Positions 12,421 through 20,882 of a stretch of DNA of 32,000 nt are shown here, piece by piece. The position numbers and the translations under genes are program-made. Origin of the DNA: Acidothermus cellulolyticus 11B (GTDB taxonomy: Bacteria > Actinomycetota > Actinomycetes > Acidothermales > Acidothermaceae); NCBI RefSeq assembly GCF_000015025.1, contig NC_008578.1, positions 1,710,001-1,742,000 of the forward strand, in the 5' to 3' direction. The stretch's first letter is position 1; every line of letters begins with the position of its first letter. The notes under the pieces are model-generated. The model was not told the DNA's origin. It saw only the letters and a program-made list of their open reading frames with translations, and searched no databases.

Positions 12421-12513
12421 GCGGTCGGCCGGCGCCGCGGTCGGCCGGCGGCGATGGCCGGCGCGGCAGGACGCGCGGCTGCGGCGATGGCCGGCGCGGC
12501 AGGACGCGCGGCT
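12421..12513. repeat. Compound tandem repeat upstream of dxr: 16 bp x2 (gcggtcggccggcgcc), then 33 bp x2 (gcggcgatggccggcgcggcaggacgcgcggct)
   Basis: Read directly. The 33-mers occupy 12448-12480 and 12481-12513 and are identical. Confidence 0.9.
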
Positions 12514-12559
12514 GCGGTGCCGGTCAGTCCGGCAACGCGCGCCGCGTCGGTCGCATCGG

Positions 12560-12825: not shown

Positions 12826-13334
12826 TCAGGTCCCTGTCGGCCCGCCCTCCGAAACATCGGCACGCCGGGTTGTATCAGCATGGCGGAGCCGCCAGCGCCG
12901 GCGCAGTCGCAGCCAGGTGCGCACAGCGGCAATTTCCACGGTTACCCAAATAGTCTGGTCCAGGGGCCACAATGTCGCGACGAGAACGACGAGGACCAGA
13001 CCGCCGGAAATCACTCCGACGATCAGCCGTACAGCCTCTGCCGCCAGAGGTAATCCGATGATCCACTTTCGATAGGGCGCGATGTCCGCCCATGCGTCGC
13101 CGCGGAAAAGTTCGCTTGAGACCAAACGACAAGGGCAACTGCGTAACCGGTTACGGCGACAAGCCCGACGGCAAGCGGTGAGCGGAGCGGGTCGCGATAG
13201 AGCGTCACGTTGATCACAAAGACCACGGTATAAAAGAGCCACAAGAGTACGAGAACACGCTTCACCACTTTGGGTGGATCACATTGGCGAATCACAGCCA
13301 GCCCTCCAGCCTTAAGCACGCCCACCGCGCGCAC
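12826..13334 (-). pseudogene. Frameshifted third copy of the A membrane module (A3)
   Basis: N-terminal half lies in the frame of ORF 13023..13334 (...VLVLLWLFYTVVFVINVTLYRDPLRSPLAVGLVAVTGYAVALVV). C-terminal half lies in the frame of ORF 12826..13242 (SSELFRGDAWADIAPYRKWIIGLPLAAEAVRLIVGV...RLRRRWRLRHAD). Joined, they align along the whole of A1. The junction is at about 13115-13135 around an AAA run (13124-13126). One extra base there restores GYAVALVVLVSSELFRGDAW. Confidence 0.7.
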
Positions 13335-14226
13335 GGCGGTCGATCACCGTGAAAACGGCGAGCGTCAGAACCATTGCCGCTGTAAGGACAGCTCCTTGCC
13401 ACGCCACGCTCCTGATAACCGAGAACGTGTCGAAATCAACGAGCGCATTGCCGAAGACAGCGAGAACAGCCAGCCTTCGATACGTCGGAGACCATTCGCG
13501 AAAACGACGGCGTGTCGCAGCGAGAATGTAGATGTTACCGAGTACGACGGGGGTGATCACAGCATGACCCGTGATACTGTACATCGCCGGAAAGGCGGTC
13601 TGCGTTGTGACGACGTTCACTCCATTGAGCACGATGGTGTCGGTTACCAGCAGCTCGGCGCTCTCGGAGTTGCCCGCCGCAGGGAGCCGGCTCTCCGCGT
13701 CTTCCTCGGTATCTGGTTCTCGCGGCGTCCGACGGGAGTCCCGCCACCGGCGAATTTCCGAGATCGCACCATACCCCGCGAGAACGCTGAGCGTCACGAC
13801 TGTAGGAACGAAAACCGTATAGAGCAGGAGACTCCGGTTTGTTTCGCGAGCATGGATGTACATTCCGACACCGAGGACCTTTACGAAAACAAGCGTGGCG
13901 ATGACGTAACGAGAACGCCTGACCGTGCGCCAGAATCGCCCCCAGAGCCGCCAGTAGAATTTCGCCTCTACGTACGACGTCGCCGTGCTAACTACGGAAA
14001 ACAACACAAGCACACCCTCGCGGGAGAGCGAGAAGCGATAATCGCGCACGGGCGTCACCGCGGCGTAGCCGATCCAGCTAAGCGCCCATAACAGGCACAA
14101 ACCAGCGGCAATCCCCGTCGAGCCAGTCGGGCGATGGTGAGGGCGCCACCTCGGTAGGTACACCTTGTCACGCAGGTTTGCTGAGGCGGCACTCCGTCCG
14201 CATCCACTCCGTTGACGCCAGCCCAC
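13312..14226 (-). CDS. Fused A+B multi-pass membrane protein (AB2), unknown family
   Basis: 304-aa ORF. The N-terminal half has the A-module pattern (4 predicted TM segments, FY...R..RR loop, C-terminal RRWRDSRR). An acidic linker PREPDTEEDAES follows. The C-terminal half resembles B1/B3. The start could be GTG 14163 instead of 14226. Confidence 0.65.
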   Translation of the reverse strand: MGWRQRSGCGRSAASANLRDKVYLPRWRPHHRPTGSTGIAAGLCLLWALSWIGYAAVTPVRDYRFSLSREGVLVLFSVVSTATSYVEAKFYWRLWGRFWRTVRRSRYVIATLVFVKVLGVGMYIHARETNRSLLLYTVFVPTVVTLSVLAGYGAISEIRRWRDSRRTPREPDTEEDAESRLPAAGNSESAELLVTDTIVLNGVNVVTTQTAFPAMYSITGHAVITPVVLGNIYILAATRRRFREWSPTYRRLAVLAVFGNALVDFDTFSVIRSVAWQGAVLTAAMVLTLAVFTVIDRRARGGRA

Positions 14227-14262: not shown

Positions 14263-14571
14263 TTATTCGTGGATTCTTTTCCGCCGCTCCCTGATCGTGT
14301 GTACGAGGAGAGTCACGGTATATCCGGCAAGGATCGAGCCAACAATCCCAGGGAGGTAGTCACGACTAGCCACCGCACTCGACGCGCTGACCATGGCAAA
14401 TAGGCCACCGATGAGCAGTGCGACCCGGTCACGCAGCGCCGCTGCGACGACTCGATACCGATCAGGTTGGAGCCGATACCTCAGCCAGAGGTTGTGCACT
14501 ATCAGAATCGTTATCAGGATAGCGTTAAATATCAGAACGGTGGACGTCGTCAAGTGCACTTCTCCTTTCAT
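14263..14571 (-). CDS. Small 3-TM membrane protein, B module (B1), unknown family
   Basis: 102-aa ORF with a hydrophobic pattern and a basic C-terminus RERRKRIHE. AAGGAG lies 8 nt before an in-frame TTG at 14553, which is an alternative start. No comparable plus-strand ORF. Confidence 0.6.
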   Translation of the reverse strand: MKGEVHLTTSTVLIFNAILITILIVHNLWLRYRLQPDRYRVVAAALRDRVALLIGGLFAMVSASSAVASRDYLPGIVGSILAGYTVTLLVHTIRERRKRIHE

Positions 14572-14656: not shown

Positions 14657-15124
14657 TTATTCCGCCGCACGCATGCCTTTGTAGCGACCATGCGCATCAA
14701 GCTCATGCCTATGTTTGCGCCAGCGAAGCCACGCCCGAGCAAGACGCATAACGAGGATCATCCAGAATACTAGTTCGAATGGCGCGAGCGCTACATAAAT
14801 TGCCGCGTAAGTGAGACTATCAAAGTCGTTAACAGCTACACCTATGACCACTCGTGCAATCTCAAGCGCCACTAGAGTGCGAATGATGCGTCTTCGATAT
14901 GGTTCGATAATAGCCCAGCTTGGGCCGCGATAAAAATCGTTAGAAGCGAGAATTGAAAAAAGAATCGTGTACCCAATCGAGAAACCGAGAATACCCAGAA
15001 TCGGGACAGAGCGATGCGCTCGCAAGTGGCCCGCTAGGACAAACACCCCCGCTATAAAGCTCAACAAGATAGTCACGTATCCGACAATTTTTTGCCACCG
15101 ATGCAATGACAGGTTGGGGGTCAT
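14657..15124 (-). CDS. Small 4-TM membrane protein, A module (A1), unknown family
   Basis: 155-aa ORF with a strong RBS (tagGGAGGcgacATG) and four hydrophobic segments. About 48% GC by hand count. The plus strand is closed by stops here, so the coding strand is unambiguous. Confidence 0.75.
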   Translation of the reverse strand: MTPNLSLHRWQKIVGYVTILLSFIAGVFVLAGHLRAHRSVPILGILGFSIGYTILFSILASNDFYRGPSWAIIEPYRRRIIRTLVALEIARVVIGVAVNDFDSLTYAAIYVALAPFELVFWMILVMRLARAWLRWRKHRHELDAHGRYKGMRAAE

Positions 15125-15180: not shown

Positions 15181-16080
15181 TCACGTGCAGTAACGGCCGC
15201 TATAGACCTCCGGTGTTATGAACGGTGGTGCTGGCGGGCCGCTGAACAAACGCGGCGCTGACAAGCCAAACTTAATTGCTAGACACTTTCCTAGCCACTG
15301 AGCAGCGGCGGCATAAACGGTCACCGTCGAGGACAAATCCCCTATCGCTTCGGTAGGCGGAAGTATTGCGAGAAGATATTGATAATAACCATAGCTCAGG
15401 CCGTACGCGGCGATGAATGCGGTTTCTTCTTTGTTGAAGTAGATGGTGCCGGTGATGATGCCCCAGGTGATTTTGGGGTCGGCGGTGATGGGGTAGGTGG
15501 CGGTGGTTGGTGGGGTGATGGTCTGGGTGAGGCTGGTGGGGGTGATGGTGTAGGTGGTGGGGATGGGGTTACCGGCCGCGTCGTGTGCCCACGGTGCGGC
15601 GATGAAGGCGACGGGCTGGTGGTGGGAGTCAAGGACGAGTGCACCGCCGTCGGCGGTTGGTGCAAGCGTCTCCCCAGGCGTGGTGATCGTGAAGGTCACG
15701 CTGGTCGGAGCTGTGGAGTCTTCCAGGATGATCAGGTCTTGTTCGCCGTGGGGAATGCGCTGCCGGGCCAGGTCCAGATGCGGCAGCGCGTCGGGGGTGA
15801 CAGTCAGCGTGGTGTCCACGGTGACCGGAACAGCGTTACTGCCCTGCACGACCAGCGACGGTGCACTCCGCGGTGGTGTATCAACATCAGCCGGATTGAT
15901 CGAACGGTGCAACGGTCCGAGCTCATCGGCCACCCGGTGCGCGTGCGCTACACGCCCAGGGTCCGAGCCGGGTTGCGCCGCAAACGCGGTCCCCTCAAAC
16001 CCAACACACACACAGCGGTCACGGTGCCCACCAGGGCGAGTCTGCCACGCATCGACATCCCTTCCATCTCCAACACGCAT
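15181..16080 (-). CDS. Secreted-type Thr/Pro-rich protein of unknown family; the signal peptide is encoded in a different frame upstream (16015-16067)
   Basis: 299-aa ORF from ATG 16080 with no signal peptide of its own. ORF 15948..16130 in another frame encodes M(S)MRGRLALVGTVTAVCVLGL, a signal-peptide-like N-terminus preceded by GGAAGGG. The two frames meet at a (GT)5.5 tract. The mature part contains AAPWAHDAAGNPIPTTYTITPTSLTQTITPPTTATYPITADP followed by a lower-GC C-terminal region of about 95 aa. Confidence 0.65.
   Translation of the reverse strand: MRVGDGRDVDAWQTRPGGHRDRCVCVGFEGTAFAAQPGSDPGRVAHAHRVADELGPLHRSINPADVDTPPRSAPSLVVQGSNAVPVTVDTTLTVTPDALPHLDLARQRIPHGEQDLIILEDSTAPTSVTFTITTPGETLAPTADGGALVLDSHHQPVAFIAAPWAHDAAGNPIPTTYTITPTSLTQTITPPTTATYPITADPKITWGIITGTIYFNKEETAFIAAYGLSYGYYQYLLAILPPTEAIGDLSSTVTVYAAAAQWLGKCLAIKFGLSAPRLFSGPPAPPFITPEVYSGRYCT
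16004..16014. repeat. Dinucleotide repeat acacacacaca, i.e. (GT)5.5 on the coding strand, at the signal-peptide / mature-protein frame junction
   Basis: Read directly. Deleting one GT unit or adding 1 nt joins the two frames. Confidence 0.9.
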
Positions 16081-16097
16081 GGGAACGTTCCCATGCG
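16076..16097. promoter_or_regulatory. 22-bp perfect palindrome CGCATGGGAACGTTCCCATGCG in the 5' leader of the secreted-protein gene
   Basis: Self-complementary over all 22 nt (checked base by base). Lies about 10-30 nt downstream of the predicted transcription start. Each arm carries an ATG: 16094 in the signal-peptide frame and 16080 in the mature frame. Confidence 0.8.
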
Positions 16098-16113
16098 ATC
16101 ACAAGCGATCCCG

Positions 16114-16143
16114 ATAATAGAAAACCGCACACGCCAGTGTCAA
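16114..16143 (-). promoter_or_regulatory. Near-consensus housekeeping-sigma promoter: TTGACA, 18-nt spacer, TATTAT
   Basis: Minus strand: TTGACA (16143-16138), spacer ctggcgtgtgcggttttc, TATTAT (16119-16114). It is an AT-rich patch in GC-rich surroundings, upstream of the secreted-protein gene. Confidence 0.6.
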
Positions 16144-16237
16144 GACAGCCAGCAGGCGACCGATCCGTCCCCAGGACGAGGTCAAGCGCGTCATCGAGAA
16201 AGTGTCAAGACGGCCGACGGGTGACCGATCCGCCCCC
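16136..16237. repeat. Two 37-nt imperfect direct repeats (16136-16172 and 16201-16237, 31/37 identical), each containing a TTGACA on the minus strand
   Basis: agtgtcaagacagccagcaggcgaccgatccgtcccc vs agtgtcaagacggccgacgggtgaccgatccgccccc. Period 65 bp. Confidence 0.85.
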
Positions 16238-16250
16238 CGTCAGCGCACCA

Positions 16251-16270
16251 GCCTGCCGCCATCGGCAGGC
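16251..16270 (-). terminator. Candidate intrinsic terminator hairpin after the MMPL gene (8-bp GC stem, 4-nt loop, no U-tract)
   Basis: gcctgccg-ccat-cggcaggc, about 110 nt downstream of the MMPL stop. Confidence 0.35.
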
Positions 16271-16380
16271 AATTGGCCTCCACCATGCGCAAAAGTGAGC
16301 GTCAGATTCCCCTTGCGGCCGACGAGACGGTCAATACGCCGTTGCGCATCGACTCGGAAGCGACTGCGGATATCACGCCG

Positions 16381-18681
16381 TCAACGGAGCTGGTGATTCT
16401 CCGCTATGCGGGACTGCTCCTCCCCCGACGTTCTGTCAGACAGCGCGGCGAGCGGCTCGCCTCCCATTGGCGGTTCACCGGCCGCCAGTACGGCTATTGG
16501 TGCTTCGCGAAATGCGTGGCGTTGCCACCACCGCTCCAGCGGAGCAGGAGCCCACCAGTTGACCCGGCCGAGAAGGCGCATGACAGCAGGAACAAGCAGT
16601 GCGCGCACCACGGTGGCGTCAACGGCGATGGCCAGCGCCATTCCAACACCGAGCAATTTGAGGGTGGTGATCCGAGAGGTCGCGAATAGGCCGATGACGA
16701 CGATGAGGAGCAGGGCCGCCGACGTGATGATGCGGCCGCTGCGCTGGAGCCCGACCGCCACCGCGGCGGCATTCCGCTCACCCGGATTGACGTTGTCCGC
16801 AGTCACGTCCCACTCCTCGCGAATGCGGCTGAGCAGGAAGACCTCGTAGTCCATGGATAATCCGAAGACCACCGCGAGAAGCAGGATCGGGTCGGTGGCG
16901 TCAAGGTAACCGAGCGGGCTGAAGTCCAACAGGCGCGCAAGATGCCCGTCTTGGAAAATCCAGGTAATCGCCCCGAAGGACGCCGCAATGGAAATCGTAT
17001 TCATGACGATGGCTTTCAACGGCAGAACAACCGACCCGAAGGCGAGGAAGAGCAGGAAAGCCATCGCCACGGCGATCACGGTGAGCATCCATGGCAACAC
17101 GTGGCCGATGCTGTGCAGCTGATCGACGAGGAATGCTGTCAAGCCGCCGACGAGCACCCGGCTCCCCGCAGGCGGCTGGACCGCGCGAACCTCGGCGAGG
17201 GTGTGCCGAGCGGCGGACGAGATCGGATCCCCGTGGTAATCGACCTCGATCAGAGCGTTGTGCCCGCGGACCGCAGCGACATGCGCACCCGTCGTCCCCG
17301 GAACCTGGGCCAGCCTGTCGGCGTAGGCAAGCAAACTTTGCTGGTCCGGGAAGTTCTCGACGACGACGTCCATGGGTGTCGTTTCGTTGCCGGGAAAATC
17401 CCGCGCCAATGCGTCGCTGGTCACGCGGCCAGGCGCGTTGGCGGGCAGGACCTTCGCGGTGTACCCGCCGAATGTGACGTTCCGGAACGGCAACGCCATC
17501 ACGGCGAGCACGACGACAATGGGAATTGCGTAGATCAACGGGCGGCGCATCACAGAACGGGCGAGCCGGTACCAGAAACCGCCCGACGACGGCACCGGCG
17601 TCGCGGACGCACTCTGCCGCGCAGCAAGCCGCCGCGCTCTGTGGTGCGGACCGAACCACGGCACGTGGAGCGCATCCACCCGGCGGCCCAGGACGGCAAG
17701 AATAGCGGGGAGAATAGTCAACGCGGCAAGAACATCCAACAGCACGACCGCGACTCCGCCGTACCCCATGGACCGGAGAAAATCCTCCGGAAATAAGACC
17801 AGTGAGGCGGTCGACACGGCAACGGTCACGCCGGAGAACGCAACGGTACGTCCTGCGGTCGCCAATGTCCGGCGCAGCGCCGTCTCGACGTCCGCGGTCC
17901 GGCTCATTTCTTCGCGGAACCGACTCACAACGAAGAGCGCGTAATCGATCGCGAGGCCAAGGCCCAGCATCGTCACGAGATTTTGCGCAAAAATCGAGAC
18001 GTGCGTGACAATCGTCAGGAATCGCAGGATGGCGAATGCCCCGACGATTCCACAGATTCCGACGATGACCGGTAAGGCTGCGGAAACGACGCTCCCGAAG
18101 ATGATGAGCAGGAGGATCAGCGTCGTCGGCAGAGACAAAGCCTCCGCGCGCTTGAGATCCCGGCTGACCTGCCCACTTATTTCTTTGTTCAGCGGCTGCG
18201 CTCCAGCATAACCGACGGAAATGCCACGGGTCTGCAGCTCGGCCAACCGCTGCTTGACCACCTGGAGCGCGCTCGCTTTCTGCGCATCGGTCGTGCCGGC
18301 CAATTCCAATGTCACGTAAGTGGAACGACCATCGGTGGAGATGAGCCGACGCTGGCCGGTGTTCCAATAACTGAGGTAGGACGGAACAACACTCTTCGGC
18401 AGATCGTGAAGCGCTCCCACGATGGCGGCGGCATTCGCCGGGCTCGTGATCGGTTCACGGCTCGTGAAGAGCACAGTCGCGTCGGACGACGGCAGATGCA
18501 GGACGTCGGTAATGGCATTCGCTGCCTGCACGGACTCGCTATGGGGGTCGTAATAGCCCCCACTTGACAAACGCTTGGTGACGTCGCTGCCCCAGAGCGC
18601 GGCCAACGCCAGGAGCACGATACCGATAATGATCACCAGACGGCGGCGGTGATACATCGCCCTGCCGAGGCGGTCGAACAT
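16381..18681 (-). CDS. MMPL family RND-type membrane transporter
   Basis: ORF 16381..18702. I place the start at ATG 18681 because MFDRLGRAMYHRRRLVIIIGIVLLA matches the usual MmpL N-terminus (MF..WGR.VY..R..VIG) and a promoter sits immediately upstream. Twelve-TM architecture with two periplasmic loops. GC is about 60-62%, below the backbone. Confidence 0.9.
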   Translation of the reverse strand: MFDRLGRAMYHRRRLVIIIGIVLLALAALWGSDVTKRLSSGGYYDPHSESVQAANAITDVLHLPSSDATVLFTSREPITSPANAAAIVGALHDLPKSVVPSYLSYWNTGQRRLISTDGRSTYVTLELAGTTDAQKASALQVVKQRLAELQTRGISVGYAGAQPLNKEISGQVSRDLKRAEALSLPTTLILLLIIFGSVVSAALPVIVGICGIVGAFAILRFLTIVTHVSIFAQNLVTMLGLGLAIDYALFVVSRFREEMSRTADVETALRRTLATAGRTVAFSGVTVAVSTASLVLFPEDFLRSMGYGGVAVVLLDVLAALTILPAILAVLGRRVDALHVPWFGPHHRARRLAARQSASATPVPSSGGFWYRLARSVMRRPLIYAIPIVVVLAVMALPFRNVTFGGYTAKVLPANAPGRVTSDALARDFPGNETTPMDVVVENFPDQQSLLAYADRLAQVPGTTGAHVAAVRGHNALIEVDYHGDPISSAARHTLAEVRAVQPPAGSRVLVGGLTAFLVDQLHSIGHVLPWMLTVIAVAMAFLLFLAFGSVVLPLKAIVMNTISIAASFGAITWIFQDGHLARLLDFSPLGYLDATDPILLLAVVFGLSMDYEVFLLSRIREEWDVTADNVNPGERNAAAVAVGLQRSGRIITSAALLLIVVIGLFATSRITTLKLLGVGMALAIAVDATVVRALLVPAVMRLLGRVNWWAPAPLERWWQRHAFREAPIAVLAAGEPPMGGEPLAALSDRTSGEEQSRIAENHQLR

Positions 18682-18770: not shown

Positions 18771-18904
18771 GCAGACCCGACGGCCGGGGTCAACGCGGAC
18801 CATAGCGCCCGGCGGCCAGAGTCAGCGCGGATCGCAGACCCGACAGCCAGGGTCAACGCGGGCACGCGGTACCGCCTACCGCGCAGGCAATACCGCCTAC
18901 CGCG
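18771..18904. repeat. Intergenic repeat cluster between the ACT-protein gene and the MMPL promoter
   Basis: gcagacccgac(g/a)gcc(g/a)gggtcaacgcgg at 18771-18798 and 18834-18861. A third partial copy lies at 18813-18830. taccgcctaccgcg occurs at 18870-18883 and 18891-18904. Confidence 0.85.
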
Positions 18905-20633: not shown

Positions 20634-20666
20634 GCCGGCAGCTTACGCAATTCCCGGACGGGCCGC

Positions 20667-20882
20667 GCGGGAGGCCGGCGCGCTGAGACCTGCGGGAGGC
20701 CGGCGCGCTGGGACCCCGCAGGAGGCCGGCGCGCTGGGACCTGCGCCGCTAGGCCGGCAGGATGTGCGCCGCTAGGCCGGTTTCCTCCCGCGACCAGCAC
20801 GAACACTCCGGCAACCAGGCACGAACAGTCCTGCGACAAGGCAAGAACAGTCGTGCGACCGGCAGGAACGGCGACGATCACC
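20667..20882. repeat. Three adjoining tandem-repeat blocks in the divergent intergenic region
   Basis: 25-26 bp x3 (gcgggaggccggcgcgctgggacc, 20667-20742). 23 bp x1.7 (gcgccgctaggccgg..., 20743-20780). 21-22 bp x4 (aggcacgaacagtcctgcgaca-like, 20796-20882; units 2 and 3 are 19/22 identical). Confidence 0.85.

Follow-up and report, generated by a model that had tools for sequence, protein, structure and literature searches.

How is a protein made when its signal peptide is encoded in one reading frame and its mature part in another? The question is raised by Acel_1529 of Acidothermus cellulolyticus 11B, a minus-strand gene within a stretch of 32,000 nucleotides (nt) of this genome (contig NC_008578.1, positions 1,710,001 to 1,742,000), which is here called the window; coordinates given without a contig name are positions in it. 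A preliminary description, made from the letters of the window, had reported that the two frames meet at a GT tract and had proposed that slipped-strand changes in this tract may switch the protein between an exported form and one that is not exported. Comparison with relatives of the gene bears out the junction of the frames, for which every coordinate proved accurate, and supports the tract as the switch point, but it speaks against a full-length form that stays in the cell. Multiple lines of evidence, set out below, suggest that Acel_1529 probably encodes a Sec-exported protein with a hypermutable (GT)n tract in its signal-peptide coding region, and that it would be a plain on/off contingency locus.

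The junction between the two reading frames

The open reading frame (ORF) annotated as Acel_1529 spans 15181..16080, encodes 299 amino acids (aa) and is identical to ABK53301.1. Read along the minus strand, on which all features of the gene lie, the locus consists of a promoter, a palindrome, the purine-rich, Shine-Dalgarno-like sequence GGAGATGGAAGGG, three ATG codons in phase with one another (16067, 16058 and 16052), a segment of 44 nt, the GT tract and the mature frame; the Shine-Dalgarno-like sequence and the starts ATG 16058 and ATG 16052 together occupy 16050..16071. The frame of these three ATG codons, here frame X, is translated as MEGMSMRGRLALVGTVTAVCVLGLRGPRLRRNPARTLGV and ends after 36-39 codons at a TAG (15950..15948). 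Frame Y, which is frame X minus 1, yields the 299-aa ORF (MRVGDGRDVDAWQTRPGGHRDRCVCVGFEGTAFAAQPG...), which begins at ATG 16080 and ends at the 15181 stop. The sequence after the tract reads tGGGTTTGAGGGGACCGCGTTTGCG and then GCGCAACCC..., and frame Y carries GFEGTAFAAQPGSDPG... to the stop at 15181.

The point at which the frames are exchanged is a (TG)5T tract of 5.5 units, TGTGTGTGTGT (16004..16014; context gcTGTGTGTGTGTtggg). It is the sole dinucleotide tract other than CG of at least 8 nt in the window, and a first-order Markov model predicts 0.01 GT/AC tracts of at least 11 nt per 32 kb. Upstream of it, frame X encodes what the paralogue substitution pattern and the hydrophobicity score indicate to be the n-region and h-region of a signal peptide, MSMRGRLALVGTVTA (16015..16058, 44 nt). 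Downstream, frame Y supplies the end of the signal peptide with its c-region, (V)GFEGTAFA (15979..16003), an A-x-A cleavage site before the A at 15978, and a predicted mature secreted protein of 265 aa (15184..15978; stop codon 15181-15183). The 11 nt of the window leave these parts out of frame. The n- and h-regions (MSMRGRLALVGTVTAVCV...) are read on into ...GFEGTAFA followed by AQPG... when the tract has 9, 15 or 21 nt (4.5, 7.5 or 10.5 units), and all other lengths stop translation after 36-45 codons. In 11B one unit fewer or two more would put the frames in register; removal of one GT unit gives MSMRGRLALVGTVTAVCVGFEGTAFA directly followed by AQPGSDPG, exactly as the preliminary description had it.

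Relatives of the gene were recovered from metagenomes. They comprise an orthologue that is about 94% identical (contigs L003 copy B, L006, L017 and L018) and two types of paralogue that are about 70% identical (L002 as one type, and L003 copy A together with L004 as the other). In the stretch of 44 nt that precedes the tract, the paralogues differ in frame X by 3 synonymous changes and 5 conservative hydrophobic ones (S>P, A>V, L>V, G>S and V>L); read in frame Y, the same nucleotides yield 0 synonymous changes against 8 radical ones (W>R, R>C, P>G, G>E and others). Just after the tract, the window and L002 differ by 4 synonymous and 2 replacement changes in frame Y, as against 1 and 6 in frame X. 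The synonymous changes of frame Y start at the first codons past the tract, and over the next 342 nt this frame has 33 synonymous and 22 replacement codon differences. Moreover, the ratio of nonsynonymous to synonymous substitution rates (dN/dS, Nei-Gojobori method, 140 codons) in the mature region is 0.13-0.23 in every pair, including pairs of alleles that are both out of frame, which marks purifying selection on this part of the protein. In the paralogues the tract stays at the same position, at a synonymous divergence (dS) of 0.46-0.86; the two paralogue types have the same 11 nt at a dS of about 0.6.

The more distant family points in the same direction. All of the inspected members at 30-40% identity have uninterrupted Sec signal peptides that align with the corrected N-terminus of Acel_1529, that is, with the one obtained when the two frames are joined, and a motif common to the family, RV(V/A)xEL, lies about 10-15 residues past the cleavage site. 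The corrected N-terminus has 2 Arg and 0 acidic residues in its n-region, a 12-residue core with a Kyte-Doolittle mean of 2.39, and a cleavage site with AFA before it and AQ after it. On a crude heuristic score that takes in hydrophobicity, charge and the residues at -3/-1, it has the n-region, the h-region and the small -3/-1 residues of a Sec-dependent protein with a signal peptidase I site. It lies among the signal peptides of the distant homologues, which score 1.9-2.8, whereas the N-terminus in frame Y, with a score of 1.47 and +5/-4 charges, and that of the RefSeq protein lie outside them. The corrected N-terminus had been called signal-like and the frame-Y N-terminus not, and both judgements hold on this score, the first also on the alignment with the signal peptides of the homologues. 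Given the substitution patterns and the signal peptides of the family, the functional protein starts in frame X and passes into frame Y at the GT tract.

The start of translation can be narrowed further. A start region, GGAAGGGATG(T/C)CGATGCG, is kept in all orthologues and paralogues, and the tract begins exactly 51 nt downstream of the start of this motif. Because the conserved start region and the signal-like residues both lie in frame X, we place the translation start in that frame, with ATG 16058 or ATG 16052 as the likely true start of Acel_1529. Both public N-termini appear to be wrong: that of Acel_1529 (299 aa) begins at the unconserved ATG 16080 of frame Y, and RefSeq calls a shorter protein of 250 aa, WP_049751449.1, from an internal GTG (VADELG), a start that omits the signal peptide and about 15 conserved mature codons. 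Two database annotations, the one resting on a spurious ATG and the other on an internal GTG, would thereby be corrected.

The length of the tract varies in nature. An 11-nt tract, off and in the -1 phase, is present in the window, in nine independently assembled Logan contigs of the same sequence, and in the paralogues L002, L003 copy A and L004. Among the orthologues, 13 nt (off, +1 phase) are found in L006 (JGI Ga0209062) and L018 (ENA ERZ27279669), 15 nt (on, in frame) in L017 (ENA ERZ27279670), and 17 nt (off, -1 phase) in L003 copy B (JGI Ga0209061); a 17-nt-type allele is also implied, at the protein level only, by the CVCVCV of protein P0004 (SRR5579875). In the 11-nt and 17-nt states it is the TAG at 15948..15950 that closes frame X, leaving a truncated peptide of 36-39 aa, and the predicted state of the strain 11B copy is off. 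The 15-nt allele encodes MSMRGRLALVGTVTAVCVCVGFEGTAFA followed by AQPDSDSG..., a preprotein of 317 aa from ATG to stop; this is P0157, which sat inside the 90%-identity cluster of P0005. A scan of genome contigs for alleles of other cultured isolates returned only a distant relative in Gordonia araii.

The 13-, 15- and 17-nt alleles show 0 mismatches in the 400 nt upstream and the 349 nt downstream that are common to all four, and over 1000 nt downstream L017 and L018 differ at 4. Furthermore, sibling samples within one project differ in tract length (ERZ27279669 versus ERZ27279670, and Ga0209061 versus Ga0209062). Since the flanks of alleles of different length are identical, and the repeat number is almost all that separates these sequences, the tract changes much faster than point substitutions accumulate. 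The number of repeats differs among orthologues (11, 13, 15 and 17 nt), an outcome that agrees with the comparison of orthologues proposed in the preliminary description. Alleles in both out-of-frame phases and in frame are what slipped-strand mispairing at a contingency locus would be expected to produce, and the proposal that the tract is a slipped-strand switch point gains support from the 13-, 13-, 15- and 17-nt alleles on identical flanks and from the paralogues with the tract at the same position. That the sequence of 11B stands one repeat unit from a normal secreted protein is likewise supported by the in-frame 15-nt allele and by the contiguous signal peptides of the family. The sequence-level features of a contingency locus are present: a repeat inside the ORF, near-isogenic polymorphism in repeat number, and both on and off alleles of an intact, selected gene.

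With respect to the mechanism, slipped-strand mispairing during replication would add or remove GT units, and such changes of length would be frequent and reversible within a lineage. A lineage could in this way alternate between making and not making the secreted protein, a state that would be heritable and probably reversible. The bias towards the off state, seen in about six of seven distinct alleles, may reflect the cost of expression. As the two paralogues in related Acidothermus genomes carry the same device, they may be switched independently. Acidothermus presumably shares with its phylum the use of NucS and the lack of MutS and MutL. Actinobacterial NucS mismatch repair does not correct indels of 1-2 bp, a property that the authors of that study tie to mycobacterial phase variation (PMC11551767). 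Our literature search found no paper joining Acidothermus with phase variation, and neither the genus nor dinucleotide repeats come up in the GeneTack survey of frameshifts (PMC3711429).

Alternative explanations of the tract

Several observations weigh against Acel_1529 being a contingency locus. All 11B-type assemblies have 11 nt, although they come from a Logan look-up by exact protein, which is able to retrieve 11-nt alleles only. The on state occurs in just one of about seven distinct alleles, as expected of an off-biased switch but also of repeated inactivation. Overlapping raw data might underlie the ENA and JGI assemblies, which makes the number of independent populations uncertain. 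Reversibility within a clone, a high rate of switching and a phenotypic difference between the phases would be predictions from consensus assemblies, and the protein belongs to an uncharacterised family. Moreover, because the 11-nt allele of 11B is the shortest seen and is uniform in 11B-type assemblies, it may switch slowly or be locked off.

In a rival explanation the tract would be a fragile site, a mutational hot spot without a switching function, the 15-nt allele being ancestral and the off alleles recent losses of function on the way to pseudogenes. The preponderance of out-of-frame alleles (about six of seven) and the single length in 11B-type assemblies would both be expected of it, and 5.5 units are short for a high rate of switching. 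We nevertheless consider this explanation unlikely on several grounds. The mature region has the low dN/dS given above between lineages that are all off, and no allele has a second disabling mutation. The perfect tract has been kept in three paralogue lineages across the dS range of 0.46-0.86, although synonymous interruptions (GTC, TGC) were free to occur. Finally, both out-of-frame phases and the in-frame state are found on an identical background. The preliminary description had named a fixed inactivating mutation as one alternative; for the family as a whole we hold this to be unlikely, and for the short 11-nt allele of 11B itself it may apply.

Programmed recoding appears improbable to us. 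Here the DNA would be out of frame by design, and off alleles would give a low, set level of protein through ribosomal slippage of +2 or -2 nt on GUGUGU, or through a UG unit gained or lost during transcription by RNA polymerase. Recoding would suit the fact that most alleles, those of the paralogues included, are out of frame and yet under purifying selection. It would also suit the finding that each out-of-frame length is one unit from an in-frame length, which is an arithmetic consequence and not independent evidence, and the presence of the heptamer G_GGU_UUG after the tract in the window. However, the relation between the frames is unconserved, being -1 with 11 and 17 nt, +1 with 13 nt and 0 with 15 nt; the heptamer GGGTTTG is changed to GGATTTG in L003 copy A and L004; and the predicted downstream fold has a z-score of -0.38 against shuffled sequences, with a compensatory change in 1 of 35 predicted pairs. 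A search of Rfam with the region 15700-16500 gave no match at E<=1. What marks programmed frameshifting, a conserved frame relation with a slippery motif and a supported stimulatory structure, was hence not found. Productive transcriptional slippage has, to our knowledge, been described at runs of a single nucleotide but not at dinucleotide repeats.

A more specific form of recoding, a programmed -1 frameshift at G_GGU_UUG, was suggested by the -1 offset of frame Y from frame X, which was common to the first four alleles; it was rejected in view of GGATTTG in L003 and L004 and of the other frame relations in the 13- and 15-nt alleles. Also set aside was an RNAalifold consensus fold of 15925-16025 (minus strand), in which the UG tract pairs with the invariant GCGCACGCGCAC, a segment about 60 nt downstream that encodes AHAH: it has essentially no covariation and no excess stability, and the pairing is probably incidental. 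Some slippage on the UG run may occur at the RNA level, and nothing in the data requires it.

The preliminary description itself had favoured a toggle of export. On that account the 11-nt state makes a full-length, non-exported protein from ATG 16080, with MRVGDGRDVDAWQTR belonging to this cytoplasmic form in frame Y, and changes in repeat number switch between cytoplasmic and exported forms. Frame Y is indeed open upstream of the tract, back to ATG 16080, in 11B, and it is also open in L002, L003 and L004; furthermore, ATG 16080 lies downstream of the predicted promoter. We nonetheless regard the toggle as very improbable. The extension in frame Y has the 0 synonymous and 8 radical changes described above, and its start is unconserved, the position of ATG 16080 being GCG in L002 and GTG in L004. 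In 11B this ATG forms part of the stem of the 22-bp palindrome described below, and no clear ribosome-binding site goes with it. Because a stop immediately 5' of the tract closes the mature frame in the 13-nt alleles, these have no usable upstream start, and a GTG within the repeat is all that is left as a possible one. Moreover, the family is secreted throughout, and its two invariant cysteines suggest an extracytoplasmic disulfide. Since stop codons are scarce in DNA of 66% G+C, the open stretch of frame Y in 11B is most simply taken as a by-product.

As for a sequencing or assembly indel in the reference genome, which had also been raised at the outset, dinucleotide runs can be miscalled as a general point with nothing specific to this one, but the explanation is hardly credible here, since the same 11-nt tract in nine independent Logan assemblies excludes an assembly error, and the exact 299-aa product in 17 contigs and the same tract in paralogues from unrelated metagenomes add to this.

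The promoter region, the secreted family and its partner genes

Upstream of the signal-peptide coding region, a predicted sigma-70-type promoter, TTGACA-18 nt-TATTAT (16114..16143), matches at 11 of 12 positions and has the same sequence in the orthologues L003 copy B and L006. Between it and the ribosome-binding site, the 5' leader contains a perfect 22-bp palindrome, CGCATGGGAACGTTCCCATGCG (16076..16097), which holds ATG 16080 and ATG 16094; 20 of its 22 bp are kept in the same two orthologues, and it is not kept in the paralogues. The palindrome is a candidate for an operator or for a hairpin in the leader, through which regulation of a conventional kind could be added to the repeat switch. 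The -35 region (CTTGACACT, minus strand) is duplicated by a 37-nt direct repeat (16136-16172 and 16201-16237) whose copies are 84% identical and 65 nt apart, a -10 box being present at the proximal copy only.

Repeats of other kinds occur within the gene and elsewhere in the window. An imperfect 30-nt tandem repeat of 2.6 copies (15484-15557) lies within the gene and encodes the Thr/Pro-rich TYTITPTSLTQTITPPTTATYPIT; P0004 is without 19 residues at this place, so that the length of the segment also varies between copies. The other tandem repeats reported by TRF in the window are at 12448-12541 (33 nt, 2.9 copies), at 18771-18861, just upstream of the MMPL gene (32 nt, 2.9 copies), and at 20666-20869 (22-26 nt, 3-4 copies).

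Two of the tract-bearing paralogues are separated, in one lineage of Acidothermus, by an island of five small genes of 96, 46, 283, 79 and 54 aa (L003 1470-3509; L017 1-1812). The island adjoins a fragment of a gene for the small subunit of ribonucleotide reductase; in the sibling assembly L018 (1-1913) nrdA and nrdB are intact and there is no island. The proteins P0004 and P0005 look like recombinants between paralogues, and the 5' region of the gene may serve as a substrate for recombination.

The mature protein belongs to a large family for which Pfam and NCBIfam have no model. In an exhaustive HMMER search, 2,614 representatives reached E<=0.001, and 428 reached E<=1e-10 (P0006-P0153 among the proteins). 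The conserved core of this family comprises APWA.DA.G...PT.Y, ADP..TWG..TGT.YFNK.ET and the two invariant cysteines. In P0062 (735 aa) the domain stands at the C-terminus behind LGFP and RTX repeats. Pfam and NCBIfam searches with the protein, its homologues and its neighbours gave nothing informative, save MMPL for the upstream gene and the LGFP and RTX repeats of one fusion. An AlphaFold2 model built from 60 sequences (mean pLDDT 87) shows a beta-rich domain followed by a helical hairpin and then a beta-hairpin, and one built from 5 sequences was poor (pLDDT 43). A Foldseek search gave no match at E<=0.001 in the PDB and, in BFVD, two uncharacterised siphovirus proteins only.

The C-terminal part of about 80 residues is of three types among the Acidothermus copies, and each type is followed by its own small protein with multiple membrane helices. 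For the comparison we used the partner-gene regions 14657-15124, 14263-14571 and 13312-14226 of the window (minus strand), L003 1470-2750, L004 4759-5729 and L002 3516-3863. In the window, the gene downstream of Acel_1529 (14657..15124, minus strand) encodes 155 aa with four predicted membrane helices, and as a partner it co-varies with the type of C-terminus that the secreted protein has. Behind the P0005 type come proteins of 160 and 163 aa that are 30-35% identical to this 155-aa protein, and behind the P0002/P0003 type one of 96 or 115 aa and then one of 283 aa. The window also contains apparently orphan homologues of the partners of the P0002/P0003 type, of 102 aa (51% identical) and 304 aa (36% identical). 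Furthermore, distant members of the family, in Gordonia araii and on another actinobacterial contig, are likewise followed by membrane proteins of 78-84 aa.

In its layout the pair is reminiscent of the genes for polymorphic toxins or bacteriocins and their cognate immunity proteins, a likeness that we offer as a lead only, no toxin domain having been recognised. We tentatively raise the possibility, doubtful as it is at present, that the switch controls a polymorphic secreted effector of toxin or bacteriocin type, in which a variable helical C-terminal region would be matched by the adjacent membrane immunity protein, with the paralogous cassettes each gated by their own GT tract. If this is so, a small random fraction of Acidothermus cells would secrete a given effector, which would amount to phase-variable, bet-hedged antagonism between bacteria in a thermophilic actinobacterium; the same reading would supply a role for the family, which is unnamed and has some 2,600 representative members.

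Comparison with known systems

Repeat-driven phase variation is textbook knowledge in host-adapted pathogens, such as Neisseria, Haemophilus, Helicobacter and Campylobacter, and in Actinobacteria it has been recognised only recently, mainly at homopolymers of Mycobacterium tuberculosis. In that species reversible frameshifts occur in simple repeats, in glpK and in other homopolymer tracts (PMC10334774, bioRxiv 10.1101/717272), and a 2026 preprint extends such variation to other classes of repeat (PMC13596474). Acel_1529 shares with these cases the phylum and the frameshifts in simple repeats, with the limits of NucS repair as the presumed common background. It differs in that M. tuberculosis, a pathogen, has homopolymer tracts, which lie in cytoplasmic or ESX-related genes, whereas here a dinucleotide tract lies in the signal peptide of an environmental thermophile.

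Programmed -1/+1 frameshifting, as in dnaX, prfB and the transposases of IS elements, likewise joins two conserved frames at a defined short sequence. Unlike those genes, Acel_1529 has no conserved frame relation, slippery heptamer or supported stimulatory structure.

In the opa genes of Neisseria, CTCTT pentamer repeats lie in the coding region of the leader peptide, and several paralogues carry tracts of their own and are mostly off. The repeat is alike in place, within the signal peptide's hydrophobic core, and the three tract-bearing paralogues found here are a further likeness. By contrast, the unit of opa is a pentamer and its products are outer-membrane adhesins in immune evasion, whereas the unit here is a dinucleotide and there is no host.

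A further parallel is oipA of Helicobacter pylori, in which CT dinucleotide repeats lie in the signal-peptide coding region and on and off alleles coexist in isolates (PMC10564699). In oipA, as in sabA and hopZ, a dinucleotide repeat in the signal-peptide region sets by its count whether the mature protein is read, and Acel_1529 is alike in this. The differences lie in the product and the organism: oipA encodes an outer-membrane adhesin of a Gram-negative, host-restricted pathogen, whereas Acel_1529 encodes a soluble-looking secreted protein of an unnamed family in a free-living, thermophilic and cellulolytic actinobacterium of Gram-positive type. Moreover, the oipA repeat is CT and the present one GT, and switching of oipA has been shown by experiment, whereas that of Acel_1529 is predicted from sequences.

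If our reading of Acel_1529 as a contingency locus is correct, it would be a clear case of a secreted protein switched by a dinucleotide repeat in its signal peptide, in an actinobacterium that is free-living, thermophilic and cellulolytic, with natural alleles of 5.5, 6.5, 7.5 and 8.5 units already present in public metagenomes, and it would carry the idea of contingency loci to environmental Actinobacteria. It would also draw attention to a large uncharacterised family of secreted proteins and to the partner membrane protein; evidently their cost or benefit makes gating worthwhile. The closest analogues of the locus are oipA of H. pylori and opa of Neisseria, and the mechanism is classical rather than new.

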